Shown here piece by piece: positions 34,431 to 62,079 of a stretch of DNA of 64,000 nucleotides. The DNA is from a virus (Duplodnaviria; Heunggongvirae; Uroviricota; Caudoviricetes). The DNA lies in the IMG/VR virus record IMGVR_UViG_3300029906_000160. The stretch is one strand, 5' to 3'. Made by a program: the position numbers and the translations under genes. Under the pieces are notes generated by a model. It saw nothing but the letters and a program-made list of their open reading frames with translations. It searched no databases and was not told the origin of the DNA. Numbering within the stretch: the first letter of the stretch is position 1; the number at the start of each line of letters is the position of its first letter.

Positions 34431-34466
34431 AGTGGAGATATCGGGAATCGAACCCGAGTCTTTTAT
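34431..34466 (-). other. tRNA-like 3' fragment (T-arm UCGGG-UUCGAUU-CCCGA plus acceptor) bordering a 750-nt ORF-free region
   Basis: no matching 5' half found by hand; 9-nt direct repeat TGGAGATAT also at 34683. Confidence 0.35.
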
Positions 34467-35211
34467 TAATCCTATATAGTTTTTATTTATATGCTTAGTT
34501 AATTTTTCTAAACTAACAAAATAACTAAATTGATTAAAGAGTGTTTAGTAAAACTCTGAATTTAAAGAATTATAATGAAAAGAGCTATGCGAAACTATAA
34601 TTAAAAGGCATAGTGGGAGTAAAGAACTCTTTGAGTGTCTTCACTACTTTTGAGAAAAGATTTTTAATTCCGTTTATTTTTGGAGATATTTAAAGTAATC
34701 ACTTACTGCATAAAACATATACCAAATCAATAAAATCAAATCCAAGCATCCCCAATGCAAAGATAAGAAAAAGTTTTAAATATACAAATAAAAATGGATA
34801 CTAAGTATAAATAATTCGCCTGCCTTTCTAATTTCAAAATTGGACGCGCTATATAGCTATTTTATAAATATACTTAGTATCCAAATAAAAATGGAAGATC
34901 TGACTGTATGTTTAAGTAACCCAAAATGCTAGTTACATAACGCATAATCCCTACAGCTAGGCTCTATTCTCTTAAATAGACTTTAGCACCAGATCTTCCA
35001 AAAAATTGGTTATAAGGTTACCAACCCAGCCTAGGCAACTTTAATCTAGAATTCAGTTGCTTCGTTACTTCAGACGCCAAATAATATTGTCTGAGAGTCA
35101 CCTCTATCTTTAATATGTATATAAGGAAGCTGAGGAAGCTATTATACACATCCGGATCTTTATATACTTCTCCTAGTATAATCCGGCTATACTAAGAGGA
35201 CTTATAAAAGA

Positions 35212-37751: not shown

Positions 37752-38676
37752 TTATGTATAAGTTAACGACTTTTAAAAAATAACAGTTCAGCCGCCCCCA
37801 GTCTTGTTAGAACCGGGAGTACTGAACTGTTGGATAGCACATAACTACAAAAATAAGATTGCCAGTTCTTATTTAGGAATGGTTTAACGCAAGAACCATT
37901 AACGTTTTAAAGTTCGTCACATCTAACGAATAGATCCGGATCATCTAGAACTATTGTTCCGTCAGATCGCAGATCATAAGTGAGATCCGTTTCATCCTCA
38001 GCCAATATTAACCAAGGATGATCGAGATAACCATCGTTCTTTCCGAAACGAAGAATCTCAAACGAAAACTCTCTTTTTCTAGAAAATGGCTCAAAGTGTC
38101 TACCAAGTACTGATCGTACGTTGTAACCATATGACAACACAGTTACTGTCTTCGCTGTGCTATCTAGAACTTACTTCCAGGTCATGCCTATTTATTGTTA
38201 TTATCTTTTTTCTTTTTGCCATAAGGATTTGTCCATTGCTGACGCTTTGTATCTTGATCAGAATAGCTTGTTCCAAAATATACCCACATTATTTCGGGTA
38301 TAATGAACAATAATAGAAATATAAACATTCCCATAATTTATCGATTTAAATAATTAATAAATAACAGAGAGTATTTCACAACAGTCTCTGTTTGAATGCA
38401 TATGAAATGGAAGGCCTATGTAGATCGCTCTACCTCGATTTCTATCTTCTAGATAAAATCTTAGGCCTTTTAATTATAGAACTATCTGCAATATGATGTG
38501 TTATATAATGAGAGTTTATCCCTTCATTACTAACCTCATATCATCCTGCTGTATCTTTATAAGTCAGAGGATTTTTGACTTTAATAGTTCCATAATTCGA
38601 GATTATGTAATCACCATCCATATATCCACGGACAGTGATTACACTATATCTCGATTTTCTGGGGTCTCAAGCCAGA

Positions 38677-39189
38677 TTACGCCATTTCAGCATAAACTGG
38701 AATCTTCTGAGAGCGAACAACCTGCTTGTTGACAAGCTCGCCATTCTGCTCGATGACCTCAACCTTCGGCTTTCCTCCTTCGAACGCAGGAACCTGAATT
38801 TCACGCATACCGTTGCAGGTTAGCGTCTTGTGCTCGAACAGCCACTCCATGATCTGGGAGGCGTCCATATCCTCAAAGATAGGATATACGTAGTTCTGAT
38901 TGGCATCCCTCTTCTTCAGAGAGTTCAGATTGAACCATGACTGCTTCGGATCACCGTTTCTACGCTTTACCTCGCACATAACGAGTACGCAAGGATTCTG
39001 CGCTCCAGTGGGCGTTGCTTCACGATACTGTACATTGTCACGATCGAAGGTATATACTTCACCTTCGCGTCCAGTGTAGAAATTCTGGGTTACGAGGAGT
39101 TCTGACAATCTTGTTGCAGGATTCTCCATCTTCTTCACAGAGCCACGAAATGTAGGCTCAATAATCGTTACATTTGCTTCTTTTGCCAT
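38677..39189 (-). CDS. hypothetical protein in a GC-rich (about 50%) island
   Basis: ORF track; compositional shift. Confidence 0.5.
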   Translation of the reverse strand: MAKEANVTIIEPTFRGSVKKMENPATRLSELLVTQNFYTGREGEVYTFDRDNVQYREATPTGAQNPCVLVMCEVKRRNGDPKQSWFNLNSLKKRDANQNYVYPIFEDMDASQIMEWLFEHKTLTCNGMREIQVPAFEGGKPKVEVIEQNGELVNKQVVRSQKIPVYAEMA

Positions 39190-39298
39190 AATTTTGTTAT
39201 TTTATAATTTGTGTAGGGTAATGACATTAGTCTTGGTACACATATTATAAAAAAATATCCCATATGCGGATATACCACACATGGGATATTTGGAAGTG

Positions 39299-39808
39299 CT
39301 ACTTATCAGTAAATAGGTAGCAGATAAGCCGCACGGGATTATCATAGTCGGGCTTTCCAGCCTGCCTATCGAATCCTGGCTTATGTAGATCCAGAACACG
39401 GCTGACCTTAATGGTCTTGCCTGTGACCATCTCAGCTCTTTGGATGTCCTTCATGCTCGTGAGGAGCGGTTGACCGAAGTCATTCTCCTCACAGAAGAGC
39501 TGGTCTCTCTCTTCATCTAGAGGTGTACGCCTGAAGATGTTGAGCGGGAACCAGAACCACCCGAATCGCTCACAATGAGCAGCGATGTGCCCAATGTGAG
39601 TGATTGTTCCTGTACCAGTCTTGAATGGTACAGTCTTGAGTGCCTTCCCGAAAGTGATCACGTCACCTTCACGGAAGAACACTGGAAGACCTCTGTCAGT
39701 ATCTTCGCTCCAGACCTTATCCAGGTCTTTTGCGTCGATCTGCTGCCATCCGTTCTGCTGTGCAAGGAACTGAGCCTCTGATTTCACTGATGTCTCTTTC
39801 ATATGCAT
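39299..39808 (-). CDS. hypothetical protein in a GC-rich island
   Basis: ORF track; compositional shift. Confidence 0.5.
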   Translation of the reverse strand: MHMKETSVKSEAQFLAQQNGWQQIDAKDLDKVWSEDTDRGLPVFFREGDVITFGKALKTVPFKTGTGTITHIGHIAAHCERFGWFWFPLNIFRRTPLDEERDQLFCEENDFGQPLLTSMKDIQRAEMVTGKTIKVSRVLDLHKPGFDRQAGKPDYDNPVRLICYLFTDK

Positions 39809-40713
39809 TCGTGTGAGCTCATGTTAACGTACACCTCTCACTATCAACGTGTAGTACTGTCTAATACAGCGTGTTACACCGTGTAACTACATCAGTATTT
39901 TGATCAAACTACAGTATTTCTATTAGCTAGAAACATACAAAGAGCTAATAGTTCATATATCGTCTAACTAACAAAACGCTATGTTTATCGATACATAGAT
40001 CGCCACATTTATAGTGGAACTAGATCCCAGTTGGACTTCGAGATCCAATATATCTTTAGATATACCAACGAACTGGCTGGGATGATTTCTCACAGTTCTT
40101 CGAAGTCTTTCAGGAACTGGAGATATGCAGCTTTTTCTTGTGTATCCAGCATCTTTGTATTGTACTGGATCTTTACTTGTTCTTCGGCTCTGAATTCTGG
40201 CAGAGTTGAGAATCCATAGCCAATTTCACGAGCATCAGCTGCATGCTCTTGGACACAAAATGTCCAGCAGTTGTATGACATGTGATCATACTCAAATACA
40301 CTAAATTCGTGTCGTGCGCAACTTCTAGGGATTATAGATAATTTACCCGTTCAACGAGTAACGCAATATCTCTATTATCTGTGATATTAGAGAATTTAAG
40401 CCAACCGTTGCTAAATCGAGAAGCAAGTTCCTCAAATTCAATACCATGACGGTCTTTTACAATTTGACGAACCTTGTCAAGATCATCGACATGCTTGATA
40501 ATGCCAATGATGACCCCATTGTGGAAAACATTGTTACCAACAATGGAACATACATATGCAAAGTTCATAACCACAATTTATTTATTGTTTCCTGATCACC
40601 TTTGATCATTGCCCAGATGATTCTTGAGCAACGAATGATCTCACTGATCAGTATAGCGAGACAGAGAAGCCCCAGTGGTATTCCCACTAGGACTTGGAAG
40701 ATTCTCCAGAGTA

Positions 40714-40986
40714 TCATTTCTTTTCGATTATAGTGTACTCAAATCCAGCCGCCTCTAATCTTTCAATCCAGTCAAGTCCTTTCTGAACTTTCTGGCCGAA
40801 GAATGAGAACTCAACGCATTTGACAACACCTTGAGTCTTTTGTTTCTTGTACACCCGCTGATTGTAACGGGTCAGCTCTGCTTTCATTACATCAGAGCTA
40901 CTATTGTTTGCTCTGGTGACCACGGTAGAGTAGCAGAACTCTACTTTAGTCTCAACGACTGTGGATTTTTTGATTCTTTGTCTCAT
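40714..40986 (-). CDS. hypothetical protein
   Basis: ORF track. Confidence 0.4.
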   Translation of the reverse strand: MRQRIKKSTVVETKVEFCYSTVVTRANNSSSDVMKAELTRYNQRVYKKQKTQGVVKCVEFSFFGQKVQKGLDWIERLEAAGFEYTIIEKK

Positions 40987-40989
40987 AGA

Positions 40990-41238
40990 CTAGAACTTTT
41001 TGATATAGTTTTGCGTAAACACTTTGAGAGCACGTTTGATTCTATACTCTCTTCTAATCTCAACTGTTGGATCAAAGTGATAATCAAGATCCCATGTTGC
41101 AACAGTCCAGTATAAACCTTTTCTGTCCATGTAAGTTGAGATTTTAACGTCTGTGCCAGCCAGTACTGTTCTTCCTGTCCAGCTGATCGCTCCAGCAACT
41201 CTTGTGCGAGCAATTAATCGATTACTGTCAATGTACAT
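40990..41238 (-). CDS. hypothetical protein
   Basis: ORF track. Confidence 0.4.
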   Translation of the reverse strand: MYIDSNRLIARTRVAGAISWTGRTVLAGTDVKISTYMDRKGLYWTVATWDLDYHFDPTVEIRREYRIKRALKVFTQNYIKKF

Positions 41239-41460
41239 AATTTTAAAATCTTAGACCCTACCCGGGTACTTCATCGATTTGGATTTCATTTTCCATTTCG
41301 ATTAGGCAGGGGGTGATGTGAGTAAAGTGGCTTGTCATGTTCATAAAATATAGGGAATATTTATTTGGAAAATTAATTTTTAATACTTTTTGTATACCTA
41401 AACTAATTTTCACGCACCTTTATTTGGAAATTTCAAAAATTTTTCCTATCTTCACGGCAT

Positions 41461-42784
41461 GAATAGTATAGTATATAAACCACTTATTACTCGTGGAGAT
41501 CTCGCTACAGATACCACCAGTGGCTTAAATATATCTAATAATTCATCTTCTCCGACTTTTAAATACACTGGATACAAACCACAATATAATTGACGAGACT
41601 CCTCTGACTCTTCTACAGAATCTGAAACTACAGCTACTCAGGAAACTGCTGTAACTCCGGAAGATCACGAAGTAGATCAACAAATAGAATGGGAAGATCC
41701 CTCCACTATCAACTGAGAAACCACTCCCTCTACTGTAACTTCTATTGGAACTCAGCAACAATCAATAACTACTCCAATACAGCATGTATTTAAAACTCCA
41801 GACATAGATACCGGAGAAATGAAAGAATTTTTAGATGTATTAGCTGACGCAGGTATAGCAGTTAGAGTCACCTCTGGAGCGAGACCCGGAGCTAAAACAT
41901 CTTCAGGTAATACCTCATGACATTCACAAGGTCGTGCCCTAGATATAACACCAGTATCCGGAACAACAAGAGAAGATTTTAATAAATTAAAAGATCAGAT
42001 ATTAAATGCTCCTACTGTTATTAAATATATGCAGGATCATAATATTGGTATACTCGATGAAACTCTAGATGAAACTCTTCAAAAAACTGGAGGTTCAGGC
42101 TGACATTTTCACATAGGACCAGATCAAAGTGCTCTCAAAGGACTTCAAGCTTGACTTAATGATGCTAATCATCTGGCCAAACACGGAATGAAATTTCCTA
42201 TTTTAGCGAAACAAGGGACTAAGCTTCCAGTTATATTAGCCGCCAAAGGAACAAACATTCCTCGTAAGCAACAAAAACTTTATGATAGAGTAACAGAAAG
42301 ACTTACTCAACAGAATCAAAATAAGAATGTTTCTCCAATTACAGGACTTAAATATGAAGAGCCCTTACAACCGCTTGGACAAGAAATAGTTTCGTTTCTT
42401 CCTGGAATTGGGGATGTAATTGAAGCGGGAAATATAGTCAATGATATTAGAAACAAAAATTATTTACCTGCAATATTAGGTACAACTTTATTTTTATTAC
42501 CTGGAAATATCCCACAAATAGTTAGAAAACTCCCAGAAGGAACTAAAAATGCAATTAAAATTGAAACATTGCTTCCAGAAAGATTAGAATCTGGTGCAAT
42601 AACTAGAAATTATCTTCCAGAAAAAGTAAATGACAAATCAATAACTGATGCGATGCTTGATGTTCCTATTGAAATAGGTAATGCAAAAGATAAAGGTGGT
42701 GGCTTATATAACATAGTTGAGAATAAAATTATTTTGGATAAAAATATCGATAAAAATAATTATTCTGATGTTTTAAATCACTAA
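41461..42784 (+). CDS. peptidase M15-family peptidoglycan hydrolase (about 441 aa); 5 in-frame TGA read as Trp
   Basis: SWHSQGRALDI and GGSGWHFHIGP (H..D / H-x-H zinc-site pattern); track shows only 42188-42784. Confidence 0.65.
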
Positions 42785-42847
42785 TGGTCACATTGATTAG
42801 ATACACAAAGTACGCAGCCTTTAAATATATTAGGAACCTCTGGATTT

Positions 42848-43132
42848 ATGAAAGTACCAGAAGAAGAAATTCTTAAATTACCTACTCAGGTTCAAGAAAA
42901 ATTTCGTAAATATTTTGATCCTATTTCAAAACCAGGAACTACTCAGTTTACAACAGAAGTGGGTCCAAGATTAACACAATTGCTTAATTATGCTGGAATT
43001 AAAGATGGAAATAAAATTTTATCTTGAAAAGAATGAGAAGAAATAATAAATGCATATATAAAAGAACGTCCTTATAATATGAATATTTTAAAAGAATCAA
43101 TTAAAGATGAACGATTATTTACAAAATGAGCT
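42848..43132 (+). CDS. hypothetical protein (about 95 aa, TGA read as Trp)
   Basis: manual translation. Confidence 0.4.
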
Positions 43133-43652
43133 GAGACAAATTCAAAATAGAAATAATCTATTTGATAAATTTAGTATCGAAGCAAAAAATTATCTAAATG
43201 ATCCAACAGAAACATTATTAGAATTGCTTTGTATTTATCCAAATAAAATGTTTGAATTTAATCAAACAGTAAATGCTTTCTTATGAATTGATGAGTGATC
43301 AAGAAAATATAATAAACTATTTCCATTAGAGAATTTTGATAAAACATCTTCATATCAATCTTTTATTTGTATTAGAAATAAATGAATTAAATATAATTTG
43401 GCAGAATGATCTGAAAATGAAAAACGTTTTATAATCCCTGACAAAACCGTACAATTCTTTTCTATATATAATACAGAAGAAGAACTAATAAATAAATATT
43501 ACGGTGTAGAATCATTTTTTGATTATACATTTGAATATAATTTTGAAAGATCAAAACAAATAAAAGACCCTGATTTATATTCAGAATGGAGTTCATTATA
43601 TACCAATTCTCAAATTTATTTATATTTAATTACTAATTATGATATTAATAGA
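43097..43652 (+). CDS. hypothetical protein (about 185 aa, several TGA read as Trp)
   Basis: manual translation; overlaps the preceding gene end. Confidence 0.4.
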
Positions 43653-43717
43653 TAATTTAGCAACACTTGGCATCTGTCTTTTAACTATTTGTCTTTACAA
43701 ATTCTTTAAATATTTAA

Positions 43718-44436
43718 GTAATGGCAACACTCGCACAGAACATCAATAACACAATCGCTTATTTAGATGATATTCGAGACGCAATCATTAACACTGGTAT
43801 TGGAATGCCACTAGCTACTCCAGTTTCTGAATACGCTAATTGAATATCACAATTAGAATTTAAATTAATACTAGAAATATCTCAAGATTCATTTAACTTT
43901 AAAAATGATGGAATAGAAAAACAACAATTTGATCTTACGTGCAATTCTAATTGAGTAATTAATACTTTTCCATCTTGAATTACAGTAGATAAAACGTCAG
44001 GACATGGAGATGATGTAATTGAAGTATCTTGCGCGTATAATACTACATTGGAATCCAGATCTGGTACAATCACAATTACTTCTAATAATTTAAATAAAGT
44101 AATTAATATTACACAAGAAGCTCAAACTAGAGGAATTTGCAATATTCACTTTAGATCTGATTTTAATGTTCAATCAGGAATTCGTGTTGTTGGAGAACTA
44201 TTTTTAATTAGTAATCACAAAGTAGAAACTTCTATTTTATTTGATTTAATAAATGATGGTGCTCCAGTTGATTCATCTCCTTATTTATTAACTGATACTT
44301 GATCAATCAATAGAATTGAATATCAAGTACTAAGAAATGAATCTCCAATCGATAGTCAATGAATTGCAGATCCACCAGTTATCCATATAGGAAACGAAAC
44401 TTCGACTGAAATGTATATAACCTTTACAGATCCATA
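43718..44436 (+). CDS. hypothetical (structural?) protein, about 239 aa; TGA read as Trp
   Basis: manual translation; track fragment 44048-44302. Confidence 0.45.
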
Positions 44437-44437
44437 A

Positions 44438-44746
44438 TGAAGTATTTTTGAATATTTATAATTATTTTTCTTTTAACTTGTTGTGGAATTTCTAAAAATA
44501 TTTATTTGGAATATTATACATCAGAACCACAGCTTGTTATAGATTCTTTATATAATAGATATAATCTTATAGATACATCCAAATATGAAAATTGACATAA
44601 AATTCAATATTTTGGAAACGATTCTCTTGTTACAAGTACATATACTGAAATTTTTGAAATTGAAGATTCTTTATATATAACATCTATTACTGAAAAAGAA
44701 AATCAAGATACGGTTTTATTACGATTTAGAAAAGAAATAAAATAAT
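44438..44746 (+). CDS. lipoprotein (signal peptide plus Cys lipobox), possible spanin-like
   Basis: MKYFWIFIIIFLLTCCGIS..; TGA read as Trp. Confidence 0.45.
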
Positions 44747-45312
44747 GAAAACATTTGGATGTATTCAATCTGGAGAAAGTTCTAAAGATATTATATATAA
44801 TGGTACTTTATCTATGCCTTCTTATGTAAGAGAACCTATCACTCCTATTATTGATCAAGGTACTCTCGGTTCTTGTGTATCTCAATCTTTATATGAATTA
44901 TATGCTTTTTATAAAAATTTTAAGCATGAAAAACTAGATATTTCTCCAACTTATAGCTTTGATTTAAGAAAAGACAAATCAATTAATGGAATGCAACCGC
45001 GTGAAGCTCTTAATATTCTTCGACACAATAATAAAATACAATCTTATGCTCGTATTAATAATTCATTTGCTTTAAAAGACTCTATTATTGTAAATGGAGG
45101 AGCACTTATTGCACTTCCTGCTAAATCAGATGATCCAAATTTTTGAGATGGTTCATCCAATTTAGGTTATCATGCGGTTTGTGCTTATGGATTTGATAAA
45201 GATTTTATTTATTTTAAAAATTCTTGAGGAGTTAATTGAGCACAATCTGGGTGCTGAAAATTTCCATGAATTGATTTTACTCAAATTTTAGAAATATGAA
45301 CAATATTAACAT
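44745..45312 (+). CDS. papain-like cysteine peptidase (C1A family); TGA read as Trp
   Basis: catalytic Cys DQGTLGSCVSQS, His GYHAVCAYGFD, Asn motif NSWGVNW with W=TGA; track fragment 44745-45146. Confidence 0.7.
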
Positions 45313-45362
45313 AAAAAAGGAGACTCTCTTTCGAGGGCCTCCTTTTTTGTTTTATTATATAT
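45313..45362. terminator. putative bidirectional terminator between convergent genes
   Basis: AAAAAAGGAG-loop-CUCCUUUUUU. Confidence 0.4.
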
Positions 45363-45363
45363 T

Positions 45364-47805
45364 TTAATTTCCCATATAAAAATTATATCTTTCATAGACT
45401 TTTTTCAGCTGTTCTTCAGTTAGCTGTTCTTTAAAGGCTAGGAACTTATAGAATTTAAAGGTTGAAGAACCGTTAGATCCATCACTAGCAGTTCCAGGAG
45501 CAACACATCCTATGTATTTGGAAGTGTTAGTAACTCTACTATCACCTACTATAGCTACAGTAGTTCTTTTACCTCTAAGTGATGCAGCTGTTATTGTAGT
45601 GTTCTCCTGTCCATTTATATAGCATACAGAACCTTCTGGAACATCATAATAATATGCTAACTCAGTTCCTTCTTTGGATTCATTTATATCAATATTACCT
45701 AAATTTCCCTGACAATAGTATTCTGCTATATTATTGAGAGTGTTAGGAGCTTCAAATTCCATAATTAAGGTATTCCAAGTATCTCTATTAGTACTACCAT
45801 CTTTATTTAGAATATTGAAATAAGGAGAGCCATCCATACCTTTAAACTGGAAGAAATCAAAGAAGTTAGGAACTTGTTCAAATACAGTCTTTTCATTGCT
45901 GTAGAGAGCTAAAACTGACGTATTATAGTCTTCTCCTTTAAAAAGAACATATCCAGGATAATCAACAGAAACAAGTCCAGTATCTTCGTCTTTAGTAAAG
46001 ATAGTGTGGCTTACTATATTATCGCCAGCTGAGCTATATAGATGAGCGTCTACACTGGCACTATATAAATCATCTCCTTTAAAATTGGTTCTAAATGGAG
46101 GATAAACAACAATCTTATCATCCTCAAAAATAGGGTTTACTTTCTTTTGAACATTCCAAGCATATGCACAAGAAGATGAATCAATTTTATTTTTATTGAT
46201 TAGAACTGCGGGAATACTTTGCTCGTTACTCCAAGAAGTTAAATCTCCTACATTAGGATCATACCAAGCCCAACCAACATGAGTAGACAAGTCAACTACA
46301 GGAAAACAGATTATATAGAAATCAGTATTTGTTGCTATAAAATTTCCTTCAGCGTCTTTATCACAGAAAGAGCTTGGAATTTGGATATAAATATTATTAT
46401 TCTCAGTAAGAGAATGAACATTCGTTAAATCTATAACATTCATTCCTGAAGACAAAGCGTAATAAAAATCAACATTTTCCCCCGTATAACCGTCATAACA
46501 AGAAAATGATGCATCTGTAGAGAAGGTTCTACCAGAAGGAGTAGAAACATAAACACTAATTTTAGTACCCAATCCTCTAAAAGAAGACCCTGGGCAGCTA
46601 AAAAGTATCATGTTATAAAGACTATTAGTTGGACTTCCTGGAGGAGTAATTTTTGTTATATGATAGATTCCGTCTGATGGAGTATCATATTCACACCTTG
46701 AAGATATAGAACTAAAAATATTTGTAGCTCTTGCTACATTACTCAACTTATTATAATTCTTCAGTTGTGCATACAAGCCATTACCTGAATGGTCACAAAG
46801 CTGCCAAGCGCCAAATCCATAAGAATCTACATTAAAAGCACCATGATAATCTTTAGAAACATCAAAATAACATGCTGCATTGGGTAGTACATTCTTATTA
46901 TAATAATCTATGAGATAGTCAAGAGGAAGATCTCGATTTCATAGAATAAATCTGCTTACACAGTTAAGGTCATAATCAGGATCAAAAGAAATTACATTGT
47001 TATTTGACCCCTTTGAGCCTTTAGATAAAATTCCATTTGAAGAAATTGTTGACCATTCTTTAGAATTATAAATCAAAACTCCAGAATTAGGAACTGAGCT
47101 ATAGTTACCAAAAGAAAGTACAGAAGAGACACCTTCAACTGGAACTCTGATTTCAGTGCTATATGCTGAAACGCTGACAACCGTAGGAATAGTTAGGTCA
47201 GGAGCTAATGTTGAAACATTAGAAGGATTAATATCCTTGAAAACACAGATAACAGAGAACCCTGAATCAGGTTTGGTTCTCGCAGCAGGTAAACTGAGAG
47301 AAGCATAGTTGCTAGGTAAATTTATCTTACTGTTCTCATCACAGATAGGAAACTGTTTAAAATATAGATAACTTCCAGTTGGATCCCAAGCAGGATCTGA
47401 AGGTTCAAAAACATGTCTAAAGGTCGTTTTCCCTGAAGGAAGAATAATATTACAAGTTCCTCCAAATACTTGAATCTGTTCACCAGTATTATCTACTATA
47501 TATCCATTGCAATAATATGGATCAGTGGGAAGATTACCTATTGAAGTAAACTGAAAGAGAACATCTGAATTGAGTCTACTATATGTGGAAGTAATTGGCA
47601 AATTATATCCATTAAATGACTTGGAAAGTACATGAATAGAAATAGAATCAACAGATTGCTCTGTTATCTCAAAAGTGTCATCTGCTACTACTTGTGAAAG
47701 ATCAAATACATAATTGTTAGCATCACTAACATTCATATCTGAAGCGTCTACATCAAGAACAGGGGCAGGAAATGAATTATTAAGTAAATTACAAAAAGTA
47801 CTCAT
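45364..47805 (-). CDS. tail fibre protein (about 813 aa) with a single in-frame TGA at 46939-46941
   Basis: track ORFs 46939-47805 and 45364-46776 are in the same frame; 54 sense codons between them; no ATG or RBS for the downstream part. Confidence 0.6.
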
Positions 47806-47870
47806 AACTAAAACAATTTTATAAAAATATTTCCCCTCTAATAGAAACTACTAAAAGAGGGGAATATTAA

Positions 47871-49178
47871 TTAAAACTCACCCCAAACTCCAAGGTTGTT
47901 GATTATAGAAACTACATATCTATGATTGGCTCTTGTTATAGGTGCAACATCATTAACCCACTTTATACCATCTGCATAAGTGATGTTATAGAGAGTTGCT
48001 CCAACAGTAATATCATAGACTTTCTCTACAGTTGTTGCATTAGCAGGAATATTATAATCAGCAGTAAGTGTAGGTACTGTAGTATATACAGTTTGTTTAG
48101 ACTCTATAGTGTTAATAGAAGTTTGAAGCCCAGTTATAACAGTCTGAAGAGTTTGAGCATCTGCTGAATTAGTACCATCAAAACCACCTAATCCATAAAT
48201 GTAATGGTCTCCATTAATCTTAATCTCGTGAGCATTTTTTCTGTTAGTATTGGAAGAACCAATACCTACAGAATGAATTACCCTAACAGTGGAAGTGAAA
48301 GAATCATAAGACTTATTATACTTTCCTTCTGCATGTTCACATTCTGTTAAAGCCTGAGTGTTCTGTCCTTCGGCGTGAGAATTACCACCTGTAGCATTGG
48401 TGTTGGAACCTTCTGCATGAGAATAATCACCTGTAGCATTGGTGTTGGAACCTTCTGCATGAGAATTACCACCTGTAGCAGTGGTACCCCTGCCTTCTGC
48501 ATGAGAAGAACCGCCTGAAGCAGTGGTGTCGGAGCCTTCTGCGTGAGAATAACGGCCTTCAGCAGTGTTTCTGAAGCCTTCTGCATGAGAACAATCGCCT
48601 GTAGCAGTGGTGCTATCGCCTTCAGCATGAGAACAATAGACTGTAGCATTGGTCCGGGAACCTTCTGCATGAGAATTATTACCTGTAGCTTTGGTCTCGA
48701 TGCCTTCTGCGTGAGAATAACGGCCTGAAGCTACATTGGCATTACCACCTTCATAACTGTTAAAGATTTCACCGGTACCATTAGAATTAGGGTCTACTTT
48801 ACCAACTCCAGTAGCCTTAGGAAGAATCTCATTGATTGCACCAACTACAGTCTTATCTGTGGTGTTGAGAGTCTCATCAGTTGCATTCTGTTTATCAGCA
48901 AGTGCCGTATCTAAACCCGTAATCTTAGACTGAGGAAGTTCAGGAATATCGTCAGAAACAAGTGATTTCTTAGAAACTGAAACAACACCATTCTCTTGGG
49001 AAACAGAAGAAATTACCTCACCTGTGTCAGCAGATTGACCAGAAGAATCAAGAGCATTAATTGCTTTAGTAATATCAGCAGATACATCAATGCTATCAAT
49101 CTTACTATTAAGGGCTTTACCTTGTGCTGCACTTAAAGGAAGAGTAGTCTCATCAGAGTTAAGAGAGTTAATTACCAT
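47871..49178 (-). CDS. tail fibre protein with 11 tandem SHAEG-type repeats
   Basis: 435 aa; repeated ..SHAEG.[NT]T.ATG.. Confidence 0.6.
   Translation of the reverse strand: MVINSLNSDETTLPLSAAQGKALNSKIDSIDVSADITKAINALDSSGQSADTGEVISSVSQENGVVSVSKKSLVSDDIPELPQSKITGLDTALADKQNATDETLNTTDKTVVGAINEILPKATGVGKVDPNSNGTGEIFNSYEGGNANVASGRYSHAEGIETKATGNNSHAEGSRTNATVYCSHAEGDSTTATGDCSHAEGFRNTAEGRYSHAEGSDTTASGGSSHAEGRGTTATGGNSHAEGSNTNATGDYSHAEGSNTNATGGNSHAEGQNTQALTECEHAEGKYNKSYDSFTSTVRVIHSVGIGSSNTNRKNAHEIKINGDHYIYGLGGFDGTNSADAQTLQTVITGLQTSINTIESKQTVYTTVPTLTADYNIPANATTVEKVYDITVGATLYNITYADGIKWVNDVAPITRANHRYVVSIINNLGVWGEF
48320..48730. repeat. about 39-bp tandem repeat array (11 copies) inside the tail-fibre gene
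   Basis: direct reading; explains spurious overlapping ORFs 48347-48670 and 48543-48728. Confidence 0.75.
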
Positions 49179-49901
49179 ATTTTCAGTAAGAACCGAATGA
49201 GTAGTAACATTCTTAGATAAAGTACCAGAAGTATTAGTAATTGCTATCTCATTGAGCGTAAGACCTAATACAGAATCAAGTAAGTAGTATAAAGTAGTAA
49301 CATTACCAAGTATTCTGATAGATACTGAAACACTACCATTAGATATTGTTCCTACAATAATTCTATTATCTTGTACAGTGGCATTTAGATTATCTATACC
49401 GCCAATTGCAGTAGAAATTGATTCTGAATCTTCAGCAGAAAGAAGATTGGTAAGATTAATTTCATAAGGTACTACTAAATTTTCAGTAGCGTTAGTGATA
49501 TCTTGTATTGTTGCCGCTTTATTGGATTCTGCATTATATTCTGTGTTAAATGAAATTACATTTTGTTTAGAATCAACAGAATTCTTTAATTCATTAACTG
49601 CGTTTACGAGATTATCTTTTATCGTAGTTTCTAAAAGAGAAACATCTCCTATTGTGGATAATTTTTCAAATTCTTCGTCTGAAACACATTTAAAAAATTG
49701 TCCATGTGTTCAAATTTCTTTTGCATCTTGTATGAACACAATTGAAGTTCCAAGAAAATCACCAAAAGTTATACCGTTATCTGTTGATTCAGCATAACGA
49801 CTATTAAAATTGGATTTAGATTTAAAATGGATAAGTTTGTTATTAATTGTTGCCATTTTATAATATTTAAAAATTTTAAGTAATGAGATTGTTAGTCTTT
49901 A

Positions 49902-52394
49902 TTAATTTGTATTTATGTCCTCAATTAAGGACTGTAGTTGAGAAATAGTAGTATTTAAATTATTAATCTGACTTTCTAAAGACGTTTTCATTGTATTAAA
50001 TTCATCTTTAGTTATATACTTAGATAAATCAATGTTCTCTGGTTCTATACTAGTAATAGTTACCTTAATGTTACTATTTCCTTCAATAATAGTTCCATCT
50101 AAATTTATAAGTATTTCATATTTAGATACAACGTCATTGTTAGTATTAAGGCCAATAAATACTAATTTAATTTGATTTGCAGATTCAAATGCGGCATACT
50201 GAACAGGCATTCTGTAATAATAAGGATTGCCCATCAGCATAATACCATATTTAATATATTGAATTCCTTTATTAGCTATTTGCTTTTTTAATGCAGCTAT
50301 ATCTGAAACTCCAAACCATTCTAAAATTTCTTCTTGAGTATATACTCTATCTTCAGGACCATCTGATCCTCCAGAAGTTCTTATTGGAAAATTAACTTCA
50401 ATAGGTATTAATTCTATATCAGATTCAACAACAAGAGCTTCCTTTCCATCTGGAGTTTCAATTGTTGGTTTATCTGAAGAATTTAAATTAAGATGTACTT
50501 TAGATGTACCTACTTCAACTTGTTTTTCTTCATTATCTAATCCAGCATTATATATTCTTGCTCCAAGTAAACTAGAATTAGATTCACTTCCGCCAAAGTC
50601 TCCAAATACTTGTCCATTAGATGGAAGTACTATATTTTTAGTATTGTTATAATCAACCCAATCTACTTTAGATGTGATTTCTTCTTTAGTTGCTAAATTA
50701 CTAATATCAGATTTCTTAGCAAATGGATATTCATCAACAGCTAATGCAAAGGTTTCATTGACATACTGAATTTGATAAATAGTAGGAACAGTTCCAATCA
50801 TGAACATTAGATTAGCTGCACCGTTACCACCTGAAATATTACCAGTAGCGTGAATACAAGATTTATAATCCCCAGCAGAATTTCTATCCACAATTATTGT
50901 CTTATTCTCTCTAATAATTTCAATAAGACTTATAAAATCTATACCAAGAGCAGCTTCTATATTTGCACTTGATTCACCTGTTTCGAGTTCTGTTAAACCC
51001 TTTGTTTCAAATACATTGGGAACTTCTTCCTTTGTGACAAAATCAGATACATCTGGAAGTTCAGATTTAAGAGCATAATCATTTAATTCTTCCTTAGTCG
51101 CATATTCAGATAAATCAATATCTTCTGGCTCTATACTAGTAATAGTTACCTTAATGTTACTATTTCTTTCAATAACAGTTCCATCTAAATTCATGATCAT
51201 TTCATATTTAGATGCAACATCATCACGAGTATTTAATCCTACAAAAACTAACTTAATTTGATTTGCAGATTCAAATGCAGTATATTCGATAGGCATTTTA
51301 TAATACATTGGATTGCCAGATAATGAAATACCATAACGTAAATACATTTGACTTCCACGTGATATTTTTTGTTTAAGTTCAGGAACGCTAGTTACTCCAA
51401 ACCAATCAAAAATTTCTTCTTGTGTATAAACTTTATCTTGAAGTGATCGGATTGGAATATTAACTACATTAACTAATTCATCAGTAGTAGCAATTGTTTT
51501 CTTACCAGTAGAAGTTTCAATTGTAACATCAGAATCAGTGTTAATATTAGTATGTACTTTAGATGATCCAAGTTCGAGTTGTTTTGTACCATCGTAAACA
51601 GCAGCTTTAGCAACCGTTGCGTTTTCATCTCCATAATTACCAAGATAAGAACCTCCTTCTGGAAGTATAACATTTATGTTAGATTGTGTTTTCTCATCGT
51701 AAGCATATGGAATTTTATCTTTTTCAAGTCTACGAACTTCTGAATCACTATATTGAATCTTAGTTAAAGTATCTTCTGCAAGATTGATTATTTTATTAGG
51801 AGATTCCTCTATAATGCTAATACCTGCTCCAGGAAGTATATTTTTGGATTCCAAATTAGCTAATTTAGAATTTATTTCGTCATCTGCATCTTTTCTTTGA
51901 TCTATTTCTGCAACTAATGTTTCAGATAATTGTTTTGTGGACTCATTAATGACCACTAAACTATTATTAAGATTTTCATTAATAGAGTTAATAGATTTTA
52001 CAAGATTATTATTCAACGTCGAAATATCGGAATTAATTTTATCAGTACTTTCTTCAACTTCATTTTTTGTTGCATATATTGCTGCAACTTCGTCTTTAAA
52101 ACCTTCAAATTCTTCTTTATCAACGTAATCACCAACATCTTGTTTTTGGTTTACTTCATCATGGAGTTCGTTAATTGCATCAACTATACTTTTATTTAAA
52201 GTTTCAAGTCTATGATCGATTTTTGGTTGAGCTGCATCTAATTTTTGTTGTGCGTTTTCATCGAAAGCAACAATGATTTTATCAAATTCTTCTTTAGAAC
52301 CTGTAAATCCAGCTTTAACCGCATCATCATATGTTCCTTGAGTTAATCTTTGATCTATTTCTGTACCTGTGTATTTTGATTTATAAAACGCCAT
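49902..52394 (-). CDS. large tail fibre / adhesin, 830 aa, with an internal duplication of about 120 aa
   Basis: DNA 50030-50400 nearly identical to 51110-51480 (..NIKVTITSIEPE[DN]IDLS..). Confidence 0.65.
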   Translation of the reverse strand: MAFYKSKYTGTEIDQRLTQGTYDDAVKAGFTGSKEEFDKIIVAFDENAQQKLDAAQPKIDHRLETLNKSIVDAINELHDEVNQKQDVGDYVDKEEFEGFKDEVAAIYATKNEVEESTDKINSDISTLNNNLVKSINSINENLNNSLVVINESTKQLSETLVAEIDQRKDADDEINSKLANLESKNILPGAGISIIEESPNKIINLAEDTLTKIQYSDSEVRRLEKDKIPYAYDEKTQSNINVILPEGGSYLGNYGDENATVAKAAVYDGTKQLELGSSKVHTNINTDSDVTIETSTGKKTIATTDELVNVVNIPIRSLQDKVYTQEEIFDWFGVTSVPELKQKISRGSQMYLRYGISLSGNPMYYKMPIEYTAFESANQIKLVFVGLNTRDDVASKYEMIMNLDGTVIERNSNIKVTITSIEPEDIDLSEYATKEELNDYALKSELPDVSDFVTKEEVPNVFETKGLTELETGESSANIEAALGIDFISLIEIIRENKTIIVDRNSAGDYKSCIHATGNISGGNGAANLMFMIGTVPTIYQIQYVNETFALAVDEYPFAKKSDISNLATKEEITSKVDWVDYNNTKNIVLPSNGQVFGDFGGSESNSSLLGARIYNAGLDNEEKQVEVGTSKVHLNLNSSDKPTIETPDGKEALVVESDIELIPIEVNFPIRTSGGSDGPEDRVYTQEEILEWFGVSDIAALKKQIANKGIQYIKYGIMLMGNPYYYRMPVQYAAFESANQIKLVFIGLNTNNDVVSKYEILINLDGTIIEGNSNIKVTITSIEPENIDLSKYITKDEFNTMKTSLESQINNLNTTISQLQSLIEDINTN

Positions 52395-53025
52395 TGCACA
52401 AAATTGTTAAATTGTTATTATCTTGTATTACATAAGGTTCGCTTGACCAGAATTGTGTTGGTTCATAGCATATAAAAATTTGATCAACTTTATCTAAGAG
52501 TCCAGTAGACTGTTTAGGAATAAAGTATTCTACTACATCTGGATCTATTACTTCTAAATCTATAAAATATTGATATGTTGTTGGTTTATATATATAAAAT
52601 TGAAAATATAAAACCTTATCATCAGGATAATTTTCAAAATATGCTTCTAAATTATGAATATTTCCAACTCCCCATAATGATGCTCTTGGTGATCTATAAA
52701 CATCTCCGTGTACATCTTTAGGTTTATTTCCAAATCGTGTTAAACTAAAAGAAAACTCTTTAGTTGTATAAAAACTAACTATACAAGATTTCTTTTTAGA
52801 TAACATATTTAAATCAAGTAAAAAATAATTAGTATAAAGTTGATTTAAAAATAATGTATAACGATCACCATTTGGAATATGATCATAAGCATGTTTTAAA
52901 ATATCTCATGGTTGATCATTATCACTAGTTTCGTGTTTTAAATAATAATCTGGACCACCCGATGATATATATGTAAACAATGTTGAATTTAAAACTGTTT
53001 TATTATCTATAGGTTGGTATGCCAT
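52381..53025 (-). CDS. hypothetical (tail-associated?) protein, 214 aa; 1 TGA read as Trp
   Basis: track ORF 52381-52806 extends upstream through a TGA to an ATG at 53025. Confidence 0.5.
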
Positions 53026-53441
53026 TATTCTTCTATTTTAAATATTTGTTTTCTTTGTCTTCCTTTTGATCAAAGTCCTAAGTGAATCCATTGAGACTTC
53101 CCACTTTTTTCTATAATAGCTTGATCAAAAGATTTATCTTTTAAATAATCTACTATAAATTGTTTAAATTTAGTAAATTGTTTATTAATTGGATACATAT
53201 CAACTGCTCAGCCTTCACAGTGAGCTGATGTTGCTACTCCTCCAACTGCTTGATTCAATTCAGGACATCTGTATCCAGAATTAATACGAATTGCAGAACC
53301 TCAAGCTTCTCTCAAGGGATTTAAAAACTCTATTAGTTTTTTAAGATTTTCTTTAATATTATCTGGAGGAGTATTATCTATTCCTTGTTGTTCAGCTATA
53401 TCACTTTTAGAAAGTTCTTCAATTGTAAAGTAAGATTTCAT
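53025..53441 (-). CDS. peptidase M15A-type endolysin-like (L-Ala-D-Glu peptidase); 4 TGA read as Trp
   Basis: SGYRCPELN..SAHCEGWAVD (H-x6-D / H motifs); stop overlaps downstream ATG. Confidence 0.6.
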
Positions 53442-53823
53442 TTACTAATCTCTTAAAACAAACTTAAATATATGTTTTGCTCAAGCAAATCTATCTCTTA
53501 CTTCTTGATAACCTAAATTATTTTGATTATTATATGCTTCCTGTTCGAAACTTATGCTCCGGTATGCTCTAATCTTTCAATAAAATATATTACATATTAC
53601 TTTAATAAACCATTCTATTATATATAATAAGTAAAAGATTATCCAATTAATAAATCAAATAAACTTGTCATTCTTCTTATTTGGAATAAAGTCTTCACTC
53701 TGAAGAGTATGTATTGTCTCATGATTTAATGTTGTTTGTGATATTGGAGTATTTTTGTATTTTTCTCTCCTAATTAAATATCCAAACAAGTTCATACAAT
53801 AAAATCCAGAAAATGGAAGTATT

Positions 53824-54557
53824 TTACTGTATATTAATTTCACTTTTGATGTCTCCATTTTGTGTTTCTAATTTTTTACGAGCACGTCATTCTTTAGAAT
53901 ATTGTTTTCTATAAGCAGAAATTTGTTCTTTATGAGTTTCCTCATATATTTTACTAGTTTCTTTAATTTTTTCTTTGTTTTCTACTCTATATTGTTTCAT
54001 ATATTCTTTAATCTTTTTTTTATTACGTTCTCTATATTCTTTTTTCTTTCTTAACCGCTCAGCTCGTTGTTCCGGAGTTTCATTTAATAATTTTTGATGT
54101 CTTTTTTCTTTATTCTTTTCGTTATAAATTTTATCATATGCTTGTTTCTTTTCTTTATTTGCTTTAGTATAAGCTTTTCTACATTCAGATAAAGAATCAT
54201 AATCACAAATAGAAAATTTAGCATTTGGGTTTCTTCTTCCTCTACTGCCATTTCCTCCTTTTGTTAAGTTATATCCTAAATCTGGATAATCTTCTACATA
54301 TGAATGTAATTTTTCTATTCACAATATTTCTTGTTGATCTAATCTTTTATCACGAAGTTTTGGTGAAGTAGAACAAAAACAATAAAGAATTTTAAAATCA
54401 AAATTATCAATTCCATATTTTTGAATAGCTCGATCAATTAAACTTCGTCTATTGTCTCGAAGTTTTAAGTGTTCAGCCATTCTTCTTTTTAAATTAGCTG
54501 TTTGACCAACATATCTCTTTTTATTAATTTTATTTACATAAACATAAATTCATCCTT
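53824..54557 (-). CDS. GIY-YIG homing endonuclease; TGA read as Trp
   Basis: MIYKGWIYVYVNKINKKRYVGQTANLKRRMAEH..GYNLTKGG. Confidence 0.65.
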
Positions 54558-61922: not shown

Positions 61923-62079
61923 ATTGCGAAAGGCTAGTTATCACCGTAACGCGTAGTAATTGAATAAATATAATATTACCAAGAGTGCTCGACATCTAGA
62001 ACAGATGAAAATGTACGCTGAACTATAGAGAATAAGAATCTATAGAATTTAGAGATAAAAAACTCTAAAGATAACAAAA

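Follow-up and report, generated by a model that had tools for sequence, protein, structure and literature searches.

Papain and the Xylella fastidiosa enzyme xylellain (PDB 3OIS) belong to the papain family of cysteine peptidases (MEROPS C1A, PF00112), whose Gln-Cys-His-Asn catalytic set, NSWG...W motif and fold are shared, the fold as predicted, by the product of the phage gene described here as gene F. Gene F differs from that family in encoding only 189 aa, in lacking the signal peptide or I29-type prodomain usual in C1A zymogens, and in being paired with a lipoprotein gene, gene E. Protease-lipoprotein gene pairs have been described in bacteria: the Bacteroides fragilis C10 cysteine proteases (Bfp) are co-transcribed with adjacent small inhibitors bearing lipoprotein signals (Bfi), two bfp genes are carried on mobile elements, and one of these, bfp3, lies without an adjacent bfi on a prophage-like insertion (PMC2873492). 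Bfp/Bfi and staphopain/staphostatin resemble E-F in that the gene of a clan-CA cysteine protease shares a transcript with that of an adjoining small, beta-rich protein with a lipoprotein signal, and Bfp/Bfi also shares the host phylum; Bfp and staphopain are C10 or C47 enzymes whereas F is C1, Bfp is exported whereas F is leaderless, and E has no detectable similarity to staphostatins. Like the holin-endolysin-spanin cassettes of phages of Gram-negative hosts, E-F combines a leaderless hydrolase with an outer-membrane-type lipoprotein; its genes are late and recoded and stand in the usual place behind the tail-fibre genes, and several E-F lineages have a holin or a small multi-TM protein adjacent. 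Unlike the hydrolases of those cassettes, F belongs to C1, not to a known muralytic family; and unlike the short, proline-rich o-spanins, E is a folded domain of ~85 aa with no i-spanin. Phage T4 Spackle acts against the gp5 tail lysozyme in superinfection exclusion. This pair, like the type VI secretion pairs (Tse1/Tsi1, PMC3391265), joins a leaderless envelope hydrolase to a periplasmic partner from the protected cell, as E-F would; the gp5 and Spackle genes are not adjacent, and the families are unrelated to E and F.

The window (the whole stretch analysed, 64,000 nt from a large gut phage of the Caudoviricetes, IMG/VR record IMGVR_UViG_3300029906_000160) resembles the large code-4 gut phages (Agate, Jade and Sapphire clades, crAss-like; bioRxiv 10.1101/2021.08.26.457843) in its low GC, its suppressor tRNA(UCA), its avoidance of TGA as a stop, and the confinement of recoding to late, lysis and homing-endonuclease genes, early genes using TGG. 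It departs from them in that its tail-fibre cassette, which lies within the recoded region, is nearly all standard code. Six co-directional ORFs, A to F, were located at 41459-45314 (+), two bases beyond each end of the interval 41461-45312 given in a preliminary description of this DNA. All six are open only when TGA is read as Trp, as that description held: each has 2-6 in-frame TGA codons (25 TGA against 2 TGG summed over A-F), the block region falls apart into short ORFs under table 11, and reading TGA as sense lifts the ORF content of the 40-44 kb segment from 2,472 to 7,815 nt. That TGA stands for Trp is shown by three independent observations. Standard-code homologues of F have TGG at the aligned Trp positions wherever Trp is present; papain Trp177 and Trp181 align with F W161 and W165, both encoded by TGA; and the window carries a tRNA with anticodon UCA (4972-5063, minus strand; 93 nt with a long extra arm; ARAGORN, Rfam tRNA model 52.4 bits) while TGA terminates 0 of the 59 credible genes tallied in it (one doubtful 80-aa ORF left aside). 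TGA at conserved Trp positions, the tRNA(UCA) and the absence of TGA stops are the marks of code 4 (TGA=Trp), and this tRNA is presumed to be the suppressor needed to translate the block.

The block is closed by an intrinsic terminator at 45311-45350 (A6-GGAGACTCTC-tttc-GAGGGCCTCC-T6; -20.3 kcal/mol, z = -5.8), which parts it from the convergent tail-fibre gene at 45364-47805 (-). The hairpin facing the tail-fibre genes had been noticed before and is real; because an A-run precedes the stem and a T-run follows it, between convergent genes, the terminator is bidirectional. No internal terminator was found within A-F. Co-direction, the single closing terminator and the recoding of all six genes would suit one functional machine, a virion-associated envelope-attack complex made of A-F together. 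This is very unlikely, given the mosaic conservation against the close relative L002, in which D is missing, B and C are 32-34% identical, A is itself a mosaic with a C-terminus of 22-32% identity, and E and F are 95% and 90% identical; in addition, A, B and C accompany E-F in none of the more distant lineages. The earlier picture of one co-directional block thus stands as to direction, not as to a single conserved unit, and the block is best explained as a late, TGA-gated transcription unit built of separable parts. TerL relatives, all from phages of Bacteroidota, and a BACON domain in gene D (described below) suggest a host with an outer membrane.

Gene F (44745-45314, +) encodes a compact C1 (papain-family) cysteine peptidase, leaderless, with all six Trp codons (W134, W161, W165, W171, W175 and W185) as TGA. 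Alignment with papain places Gln38, Cys44 (44874-44876), His143 (45171-45173) and Asn159 (45219-45221), all on the plus strand, on papain Q19, C25, H159 and N175. The intact Cys/His/Asn residues claimed for a C1A peptidase were therefore recovered by alignment, with the Gln in addition; the set is invariant in 10 homologues, and among 146 family representatives Q38 is kept in 145, C44 in 144, and H143 and N159 in all. F scores 25.7 bits against PF00112 (cutoff 20.7), the aligned part covering only aa 141-171; longer relatives found by family-profile search match PF00112 positions 1-205 of 220, with E down to 5e-22, and F matches phrog_16701 at 1.3e-8. An AF2 model of P0001, a protein 90% identical to F, has the two-lobed papain fold (pLDDT 89, pTM 0.87). 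Foldseek of this F-type model against the PDB, a check that had been suggested at the outset, gave 179 matches at E <= 1e-3, and among the matches listed (50) all were C1 enzymes (TMq 0.61-0.82), with TMq 0.78-0.82 against pro-papain and xylellain. F has no Pfam match to the I29 prodomain, its N-terminal extension being only 23 residues with a family-specific G5/S9 motif, and an N-terminal hydrophobic segment or signal peptide is absent from F and from 149/149 of its closest family representatives. By these sequence and model criteria F is a real C1 papain-family enzyme, predicted to be active. That such proteases are uncommon in phages holds for deposited phage genomes (19/50,697 records contain C1 peptidases) and fails for metagenomes, where the F family forms 172 clusters (50% identity) at E <= 1e-30. 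A scan of 185,579 genomes of bacteria and archaea with a single pattern gave no close relative.

Gene E (44437-44745, +; 102 aa, both Trp codons TGA) lies directly upstream. Its start overlaps the stop of D, and its stop the start of F, each in a TAATG; an alternative upstream ATG at 44359 is an unlikely start. The predicted signal peptide MKYFWIFIIIFLLTC is followed by lipobox Cys16, which is invariant, with D36, S37 and D62, in a 45-sequence alignment of the E family. Most of these homologues have the canonical [GAS]-C, and the E of the window has an atypical Cys at -1. By sequence E is a lipoprotein, as the Cys lipobox had indicated. Acidic residues are absent after the lipobox Cys; such residues form the Bacteroidota surface-export signal, and their absence suggests that E faces the periplasm. 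The mature domain of ~85 aa is predicted to be ordered b1-a1-b2-b3-b4-b5 (AF2 pLDDT 85). E had no match in Pfam, PHROG, NCBIfam or PADLOC. As to spanins, no i-spanin-like type II membrane protein stands beside E in the window, E has no C-terminal TMD, and it matches no PHROG lysis family.

The main point, absent from the preliminary description, is the near-obligate pairing of the lipoprotein with the peptidase. In the window and in loci L002, L008, L005/L016, L011/L014, L012/L015, L017, L018 and L019, the end of an E-like lipoprotein ORF lies at most a few bases from the start of F, and in most cases the two overlap. E and F are placed in this way at 22 of 24 IMG/VR loci; in L040 a single gene separates them, and one truncated locus is not evaluable, so that the pair is present at 23/23 evaluable loci, which represent only about six distinct lineages. 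All further metagenomic relatives examined have the pair as well. Adjacency and start/stop overlap persist down to ~33% F identity, while the surroundings vary, being tail fibres in some loci, genes of replication or nucleotide metabolism in others, and elsewhere a Rep3-like gene. E-F is a translationally coupled pair and a conserved, mobile two-gene cassette that moves between contexts as a unit; it forms the core of the finding. The module is apparently undescribed and is probably aimed at the host cell envelope.

Of the roles first proposed for the block, cell-envelope attack fits the evidence best. We tentatively prefer to read F as an envelope protease that has no leader and depends on a holin, with E as its lipoprotein partner in the periplasm, a plausible scheme that falls short of probable. 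E would be exported, lipid-anchored and facing the periplasm of the Bacteroidota host, and F would be an active papain-family endopeptidase, leaderless, produced in the cytoplasm and only once the TGA suppressor works. Holin lesions at the end of infection would let F reach the envelope, as for canonical endolysins, where it would meet E, which may dock or regulate it. F could then cleave proteinaceous envelope parts, such as the tethers between outer membrane and peptidoglycan, or perhaps the peptides of peptidoglycan itself. The cassette would provide an accessory lysis step beside the M15_3 endolysin described below. Inferred here are the compartments of the two proteins, their physical interaction, the need for a holin, and what F cleaves.

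Neighbouring genes favour a link to lysis. In L040 the order is tail fibre, E, holin (phrog_1299, 6.8e-7), F and a second lipoprotein, and in Thermoanaerobacterium phage THSA-485A the C1A homologue is flanked by a GH25 endolysin and a holin (phrog_13712, 1.1e-6). L018, L021 and L022 each encode a three-TM protein (81-87 aa) immediately before E; these loci are syntenic and so not independent observations, and the three proteins have no match to holin families. In L005, L016 and L043 a TM protein comes immediately after F. All 8 Trp codons of E and F in the window are TGA, which agrees with a report that recoded codons favour late and lysis genes (bioRxiv 10.1101/2021.08.26.457843) and counts for a lysis link. 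Against the lysis reading, a holin adjoins the peptidase gene in L040 and THSA-485A but none adjoins E-F in the window, L002, L014 or L015, and the holin-like and endolysin genes of the window are ~8-9 kb off on the other strand. Cell-wall-binding domains are absent from the longer relatives of F, the E model has no informative fold match, and the F homologue of a Lak megaphage has no adjacent lipoprotein. We know of no C1-family enzyme acting in phage lysis. The papain-superfamily lysins described are of the CHAP, NlpC/P60 and Amidase_5 families and the PeiW family (PMC10318531).

The main rival to lysis is an enzyme-immunity pair. In this reading F would enter the periplasm of a cell from outside, virion-borne or ejected, or would be dangerous on release; E, a lipoprotein in the periplasm, would be the cognate inhibitor that shields the cell already infected, a case of superinfection exclusion. 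Tight adjacency, the position of the putative inhibitor gene first and its translational coupling to F would all be expected, as would the different compartments of a leaderless F and an exported E. A leaderless enzyme with an exported partner is typical of effector-immunity pairs that act in the periplasm. The predicted element order of E (strand, helix, four strands) is that of cystatins, yet neither the sequence nor the predicted fold of E matches cystatins (I25), chagasins (I42) or staphostatins (I57). Precedent comes from the same host phylum in Bfp/Bfi (PMC2873492) and from a chagasin-like membrane-anchored inhibitor of papain-like proteases reported in Pseudomonas (bioRxiv 10.64898/2026.06.02.729523). 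E-F has tail-fibre or receptor-binding genes as neighbours in the window, L002, L008, L019 and L040, which would fit a virion-associated F; against this reading, E-F is far from structural genes in several lineages, and the holin adjacency in L040 and THSA-485A would be coincidence. E is 95% conserved against L002 while the adjoining fibres are wholly replaced, which argues against a receptor-masking role and is neutral for an inhibitor of F. On balance we consider an enzyme-immunity pair rather unlikely.

The loci in L014, L015 and L016 bear on a further alternative. There E-F lies amid standard-code, early or middle replication and nucleotide-metabolism genes, unlike a lysis cassette and as might be expected if F were a cytoplasmic host-takeover or counter-defence protease and E had a separate envelope function, the two linked only as a moron-type travelling cassette. 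The lack of export signals in F and all 149 closest relatives, and a cassette position that differs between phages as that of accessory genes does, agree with such a role. Near-obligate adjacency and overlap down to ~33% F identity would be hard to explain without functional coupling, however; F is fully TGA-gated in the window, which implies late expression, and it matches no defence or anti-defence family (PADLOC and others). A cytoplasmic role is accordingly judged a distinctly poor prospect.

Capsid or tail maturation by the C1 enzyme, another role offered in the preliminary description, found no support and is most improbable. A prohead-type protease might be late, recoded and near the tail-fibre genes, as F is in the window, but in more than 10 lineages F never adjoins portal, scaffold or major capsid genes and is almost always beside a lipoprotein gene, and an exported lipoprotein partner would make no sense for assembly in the cytoplasm. 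The known prohead proteases are of the S78, U9/U35, S80 and herpesvirus-type families, none of which F matches in PHROGs.

Gene A (41459-42784, +) encodes 441 aa (5 TGA, 1 TGG) in three regions. The N-terminus (~aa 1-120) is S/T/E-rich, a divergent Peptidase_M15_3 domain follows, and the C-terminal part starts out conserved and turns variable. The M15_3-like catalytic domain (aa 123-220; 41825-42118, +), of the LAS zinc peptidase type, was assigned by similarity to a paralogue: BLASTP against the 138-aa M15_3 protein of the window gave 32% identity over 102 aa (E = 3e-9). The motifs H155-x6-D162 (SWHSQGRALD) and H216/H218 (WHFH) align with that protein in invariant columns, and H155, D162 and H216/H218 are proposed as zinc ligands, the H-x6-D and downstream His being the metal-binding motifs of the M15 family. 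Pfam matches to A were sub-threshold (M15_4, PF13539, 15 bits against a cutoff of 25; M15_3, PF08291, 13.8 bits against 23.2), its L002 homologue had no Pfam match at E <= 0.01, and PDB sequence searches with A found nothing. An M15-type domain in the 441-aa protein is thus borne out, and the family assignment rests on paralogue similarity and motifs. Compared with M15_3/LAS zinc peptidases (phrog_894 endolysins, MepK-type L,D-endopeptidases), the central domain of A keeps the H-x6-D and H motifs but is sub-threshold in Pfam and is embedded in a longer protein, where its flanks are a low-complexity N-terminus and a C-terminus of mosaic make-up.

The paralogue, at 53025-53441 (-), matches PF08291 at 1.7e-20 and the phrog_894 'endolysin' at 5e-32, and is the probable true endolysin. 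Near it, an 82-aa two-TM protein (54557-54805, -) with no PHROG match is a holin candidate by hydropathy and topology alone, in a lysis-like cluster. A is not the main endolysin of the phage, whose probable endolysin and candidate holin are encoded by this pair of genes at 53025-54805 (-). Being sub-threshold in Pfam and yet 32% identical to the M15_3 endolysin of the window, A would be a second peptidoglycan peptidase, most likely virion- or tail-associated rather than a lysis endolysin; compared with the phage collection, deposited phage genomes, it matched only a peptidase segment within a tape-measure protein. Against L002, aa 161-320 of A are 82-100% identical and aa 321-441 are 22-32% identical, and this variable C-terminus changes in step with B-D and the fibres.

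Genes B, C and D are a fast-evolving segment which, judged by sequence, includes a BACON glycan-binding (sugar-binding) protein. Gene B (42848-43150, +; 100 aa, 3 TGA, 0 TGG) and gene C (43107-43655, +; 182 aa, 4 TGA, 1 TGG) belong to no known family and are variable, at 32% and 34% identity to their L002 counterparts; an NYDINR motif at the C-terminus is common to the C product and its counterpart. Three proteins had been listed as unknown; B and C remain so, whereas gene D (43721-44437, +; 238 aa, 5 TGA, 0 TGG) has a BACON domain spanning aa 51-134 (nt 43871-44122), which scores 44.4 bits with PF13004 (cutoff 25; 1.6e-11) and 37.1 bits with PF19190 (3e-9). A BACON protein also adjoins E-F in L008, L020 and L018.

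Under the standard bacterial code, the stretch between 41.4 and 45.3 kb contained short fragments only. With TGA treated as a sense codon, the ORF content of the 40–44 kb segment rose from 2,472 to 7,815 nt and six co-directional plus-strand ORFs emerged: A (41459–42784, 441 aa), B (42848–43150, 100 aa), C (43107–43655, 182 aa), D (43721–44437, 238 aa), E (44437–44745, 102 aa) and F (44745–45314, 189 aa). One-base overlaps (TAATG) at the D/E and E/F junctions are a sign of translational coupling. Tryptophan codons in the six genes numbered 25 TGA and 2 TGG. The recoded block of the preliminary description is confirmed, with each end shifted by two bases. Three independent lines show that TGA is read as tryptophan in the block. 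The TGA codons of F (W134, W161, W165, W171, W175 and W185) were aligned with TGG in standard-code homologues wherever tryptophan was present, and two of them with Trp177 and Trp181 of papain. TGA served as the stop codon in 0 of 59 credible genes tallied (one doubtful 80-aa ORF was set aside). A tRNA with anticodon UCA was found at 4972–5063 (minus strand; labeled SeC by ARAGORN, 52.4 bits with the Rfam tRNA model); the amino acid that it carries, as judged from homology at TGA positions only, would be tryptophan. At 93 nt, this tRNA includes a ~20-nt extra arm. The block is closed by a 40-nt hairpin (45311–45350; -20.3 kcal/mol, z = -5.8) at the position described before, facing the convergent tail fiber genes; an A-run precedes the stem and a T-run follows it, so the hairpin is read as a bidirectional terminator shared by the block and the fiber gene at 45364–47805 (minus strand). 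No terminator-like site was found on the coding strand within A–F. An antisense ORF opposite gene A (41446–42258, minus strand, 270 aa, 12 TGA) was rejected as an artifact, as it is open only with TGA as sense, and its apparent conservation in the close metagenomic relative L002 mirrors that of gene A.

Gene A gave sub-threshold Pfam matches to M15_4 and M15_3. Its residues 123–220 were 32% identical (E = 3e-9) to a 138-aa protein at 53025–53441 (minus strand), which was assigned to Peptidase_M15_3 (1.7e-20) and to the endolysin family phrog_894 (5e-32), and the H-x6-D and His motifs are kept in both. A therefore holds a divergent M15_3 domain, and the M15 hydrolase first proposed stands by this similarity although Pfam alone falls short of it. 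A PDB sequence search gave no match for A or for a profile of A with M15_3 paralogs, and an IMG/VR search for loci related to A returned nothing, TGA recoding and low-complexity patterns probably interfering. Compared with L002, A is a mosaic: residues 161–320 are 82–100% identical, the N-terminal 120 residues ~40% and the C-terminal 120 residues 22–32%. The sole segment similar to A in deposited phage genomes sits within a tape-measure protein, and we infer that A may be a virion- or tail-associated wall peptidase. B and C had no detectable family in Pfam, PHROG or NCBIfam; D, listed with them as unknown in the preliminary description, carries a BACON domain (Pfam, 44.4 bits, cutoff 25). NCBIfam and PADLOC gave no meaningful matches for A–F. 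The ordinary lysis genes of the phage appear to lie elsewhere than gene A, in a minus-strand cluster at 53025–54805 that probably represents the true lysis genes of the window. It comprises the M15_3 endolysin (53025–53441), a 137-aa HExxH membrane protein (phrog_15610 'protease', 9e-23), an 82-aa two-TM holin candidate and a GIY-YIG endonuclease inserted between genes (53824–54567, motif found by inspection).

F matched Pfam Peptidase_C1 above threshold (25.7 bits; threshold 20.7) over its C-terminal motif only, and also matched phrog_16701; in longer relatives the match covered the Pfam model in full. Phmmer against the PDB aligned PIIDQGTLGSC and YHAV...KNSWGVNW of F with PVKNQGSCGSC and DHAV...KNSWGTGW of papain, respectively. 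Gln38, Cys44, His143 and Asn159 were invariant in 10 homologs and were kept in 145, 144, 146 and 146 of 146 family representatives, bearing out the intact catalytic residues reported earlier. Structure and profile searches were run with the database homologs P0001 and P0167 (90–96% identical to the window proteins). The AlphaFold2 model of P0001 (90% identical to F) was confident (pLDDT 89) and had a papain fold; Foldseek returned 179 PDB chains at E ≤ 1e-3, all 50 listed were papain-family enzymes, and the best matches among those listed were pro-papain and xylellain (TMq 0.78–0.82). Because threshold, catalytic residues, fold and full-length relatives agree, membership of F in family C1 is solid. 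Its format is atypical: 189 aa with neither signal peptide nor prodomain, and with no more than a 23-residue N-terminal extension in which Gly5 and Ser9 are conserved. None of the 149 nearest representatives had an N-terminal hydrophobic stretch, and no cell-wall-binding domain was present among the longer relatives. F-family matches were found in 19 of 50,697 deposited phage records, mostly Lak megaphages and including one distant homolog in Thermoanaerobacterium phage THSA-485A, so that C1 enzymes are uncommon among deposited phages as first stated, but metagenomes hold a sizeable family (at least 172 clusters at 50% identity, E ≤ 1e-30). A scan of 185,579 bacterial and archaeal species (one genome each, one conserved peptide pattern) gave no close relative, and distant C1 proteins at ≤26% identity over most of their length were all that it returned; a prophage or cellular origin of F found no support in this one-pattern scan. 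A plasmid origin of the cassette was rejected, matches being distant C1 proteins only, from Bacillus, Rhizobium and similar hosts. F is thus a genuine C1 peptidase, unusually compact and leaderless, and the searches made here detected its family in phages alone.

E begins with a signal peptide followed by a lipobox Cys, in keeping with the lipoprotein first described. A profile search with E gave 77 homologs of ~96–116 aa, for which no family annotation exists; the Cys, Asp36-Ser37 and Asp62 were invariant in 45 aligned homologs. Relatives of the pair were reached by two routes, via the peptidase or via the lipoprotein, and wherever a metagenomic relative had sufficient sequence upstream, E and F were neighbors. 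The pair is adjacent in the window and in L002 (F 90%, E 95% identical), in L008 (F 55% identical), in L005 and L016 (F 33% identical), and in MT836733 and L014, MT121960 and L015, L017, L018 and L019. When IMG/VR was scanned without bias using the peptidase alignment, 24 loci were obtained; in 21 of them an automated screen placed the end of a lipoprotein-like ORF only a few bases from the start of the peptidase gene. L041, with E adjacent, and L040, with one gene between E and F, were recognized on manual inspection, and L034 was left out of the count as its upstream sequence was too truncated; pairing was thus present in 23 of 23 evaluable loci, many of them near-identical and together representing about six lineages. 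The two exceptions were the Lak-B7 and THSA-485A homologs, near which no E-like gene was found. No E–F fusion occurred among 166 F-family proteins (Rosetta-stone test). As far as we could find, this near-invariable pairing of F with a small lipoprotein is new, and no published description of such a lipoprotein–C1 peptidase pair was found in the literature.

The surroundings of the pair change. E and F lie beside tail fibers or BACON proteins in the window, L002, L008, L020, L019 and L040, amid replication and nucleotide-metabolism genes in L014, L015 and L016, and next to a Rep3-like gene in L018, L021 and L022. Outside the closest relatives the pair occurs without A, B and C, and D is missing from L002. 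As E and F are kept together through these changes and A–D are not, the pair is a self-contained mobile cassette; such mosaic conservation contradicts a single machine formed by all of A–F, which we consider very unlikely. The preliminary description was correct in its observation and partly right in its interpretation, which offered capsid or tail maturation or cell-envelope attack: nothing in the gene contexts favored maturation, and a role there is highly improbable.

An intact leaderless C1 enzyme, an exported lipoprotein and the coupling of their genes are established; how the two proteins act is inferential. Our tentative preference is for an accessory, holin-dependent envelope protease (F) that has in E a lipoprotein partner in the periplasm, as dock or regulator. 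E lacks acidic residues after its Cys; given the known signal for lipoprotein export in Bacteroidota, it is therefore expected on the periplasmic side, and F, if the two meet, would have to reach the periplasm as well. F might do so via a holin, a route suggested by two observations. In L040 (254-kb contig) the order is tail fiber, E, holin (phrog_1299, 6.8e-7), F and a second lipoprotein-like ORF, and in THSA-485A the C1A homolog lies between a GH25 endolysin and a holin (phrog_13712, 1.1e-6). Immediately ahead of E, and joined to it by a stop–start codon overlap, L018, L021 and L022 encode three-TM proteins of 81–87 aa (protein and cassette at 1352–2501, 2451–3579 and 2427–3573, respectively), with a coiled-coil protein and the Rep3-like gene upstream. 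In L005, L016 and L043 the gene right after F encodes a TM protein, and L008 and L020 have, within ~1.3 kb downstream, a two-TM protein together with a membrane protein bearing HExxH; the HExxH protein of L008 recalls the one in the lysis-like cluster of the window. Against a lysis role, the window pair is 8–9 kb from the holin-like gene, several lineages hold the pair among early-looking genes, the three-TM proteins of L018, L021 and L022 had no PHROG match and no holin family, these three loci are syntenic rather than independent, no C1 enzyme is known to act in lysis, and E resembles no spanin.

Two other readings were weighed against the holin-dependent protease. An enzyme–immunity pair, which we judge rather unlikely, would account for the mismatch of compartments (leaderless F, exported E) and for a partner gene preceding the enzyme gene. 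E was predicted to fold as strand-helix-four-strand (pLDDT 85), the order of elements in cystatins. Like E beside F, lipoprotein inhibitors are adjacent to the C10 proteases of B. fragilis, and two bfp genes are on mobile elements (PMC2873492). Fold searches with E, on the other side, gave no inhibitor and no convincing match, so that the enzyme–immunity reading stands as a lead only. A purely cytoplasmic host-takeover protease would fit the absence of a leader in F, but the near-obligate coupling to an exported partner speaks against it and leaves it quite improbable.

Bacteroidota are the dominant phylum of Gram-negative bacteria in the gut. Little is known of the way in which their phages breach the outer cell layers, and to our knowledge spanins are rarely recognizable in these phages. 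A broader form of the envelope-protease proposal, possible yet doubtful, is that E and leaderless F, often with a small multi-TM protein, form an unrecognized lysis or envelope-breaching module specific to Bacteroidota phages. In it a papain-family protease, instead of a muralytic enzyme or spanin, would deal with the protein and outer-membrane portion of the envelope, and the lipoprotein would be its obligate dock or regulator in the periplasm. If so, phage lysis would gain in F its first enzyme of the C1 family, and the pair would be a candidate for the missing spanin equivalent. As far as the one-pattern scan of cellular genomes reaches, the F family appears specific to phages, and the compact two-gene module is directly testable; it could be a new lysis step or a new enzyme–immunity or superinfection-exclusion system, and could supply envelope-active proteases against Bacteroides and Prevotella. 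The recoding, M15 domain, BACON domain and terminator are ordinary and of known kinds.

The window (GC ~30%) also codes for GroEL, a GroES-like protein, several homing endonucleases, a tRNA array (10.8–18.3 kb) and a large terminase whose relatives all belong to phages of Bacteroidota (crAss-like, Flavobacterium, Cellulophaga and Azobacteroides phages); the metagenomic contigs that carry close relatives reach ~172 kb. Recoding is partial: early-looking genes use 4 TGA and 78 TGG, and TGA is used in A–F, in plus-strand genes at 55–63 kb and in every homing-endonuclease ORF. TGA recoding is already known, as this pattern matches that described for code-4 gut phages, where it is proposed to restrain late and lysis genes (Borges et al., bioRxiv 10.1101/2021.08.26.457843). 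All eight tryptophan codons of E and F are TGA, so neither can reach full length before the code switch; F, with six of them, cannot be produced until then, as expected for a product dangerous if made early, and the block is a clean example of TGA gating. The homing-endonuclease-like ORFs, grouped by inspection (11266–11811, 12226–12720, 15755–16954, 22310–23200, 23830–24702 and 53824–54567, all minus strand), use 27 TGA and 0 TGG even amid standard-code early genes and the tRNA array, and match the recoded intron endonucleases of Agate phages (bioRxiv 10.1101/2021.08.26.457843).

No DNA similarity to deposited phages was found for the 41–48 kb stretch or for the cassette of locus L023. At 38000–41413, GC is 0.39–0.41 (~0.30 elsewhere) and small minus-strand ORFs use the standard code (1 TGA, 14 TGG), meeting the recoded block head-to-head at ~41413/41459. 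An ARAGORN tmRNA call at 34432–34753 (minus strand), where no Rfam family reached its gathering score, is probably a false positive. The large terminase (61023–63261, plus strand) appears split, ORF 62080–63261 covering positions 342–737 only of the 758-position phrog_6681 profile, a pattern pointing to an intron, an intein or an N-terminal part encoded by its own ORF. The three tail fiber genes at 45364–52394 (minus strand) use 13 TGG and 2 TGA, with heavily TGA-recoded late genes on both sides; L002 has in their place a single different fiber with a GDSL-lipase domain, and the C-terminal fiber domain of 49902–52394 is common to the standard-code phage L008. The fiber genes have the look of a host-range cassette acquired recently from a phage with the standard code.
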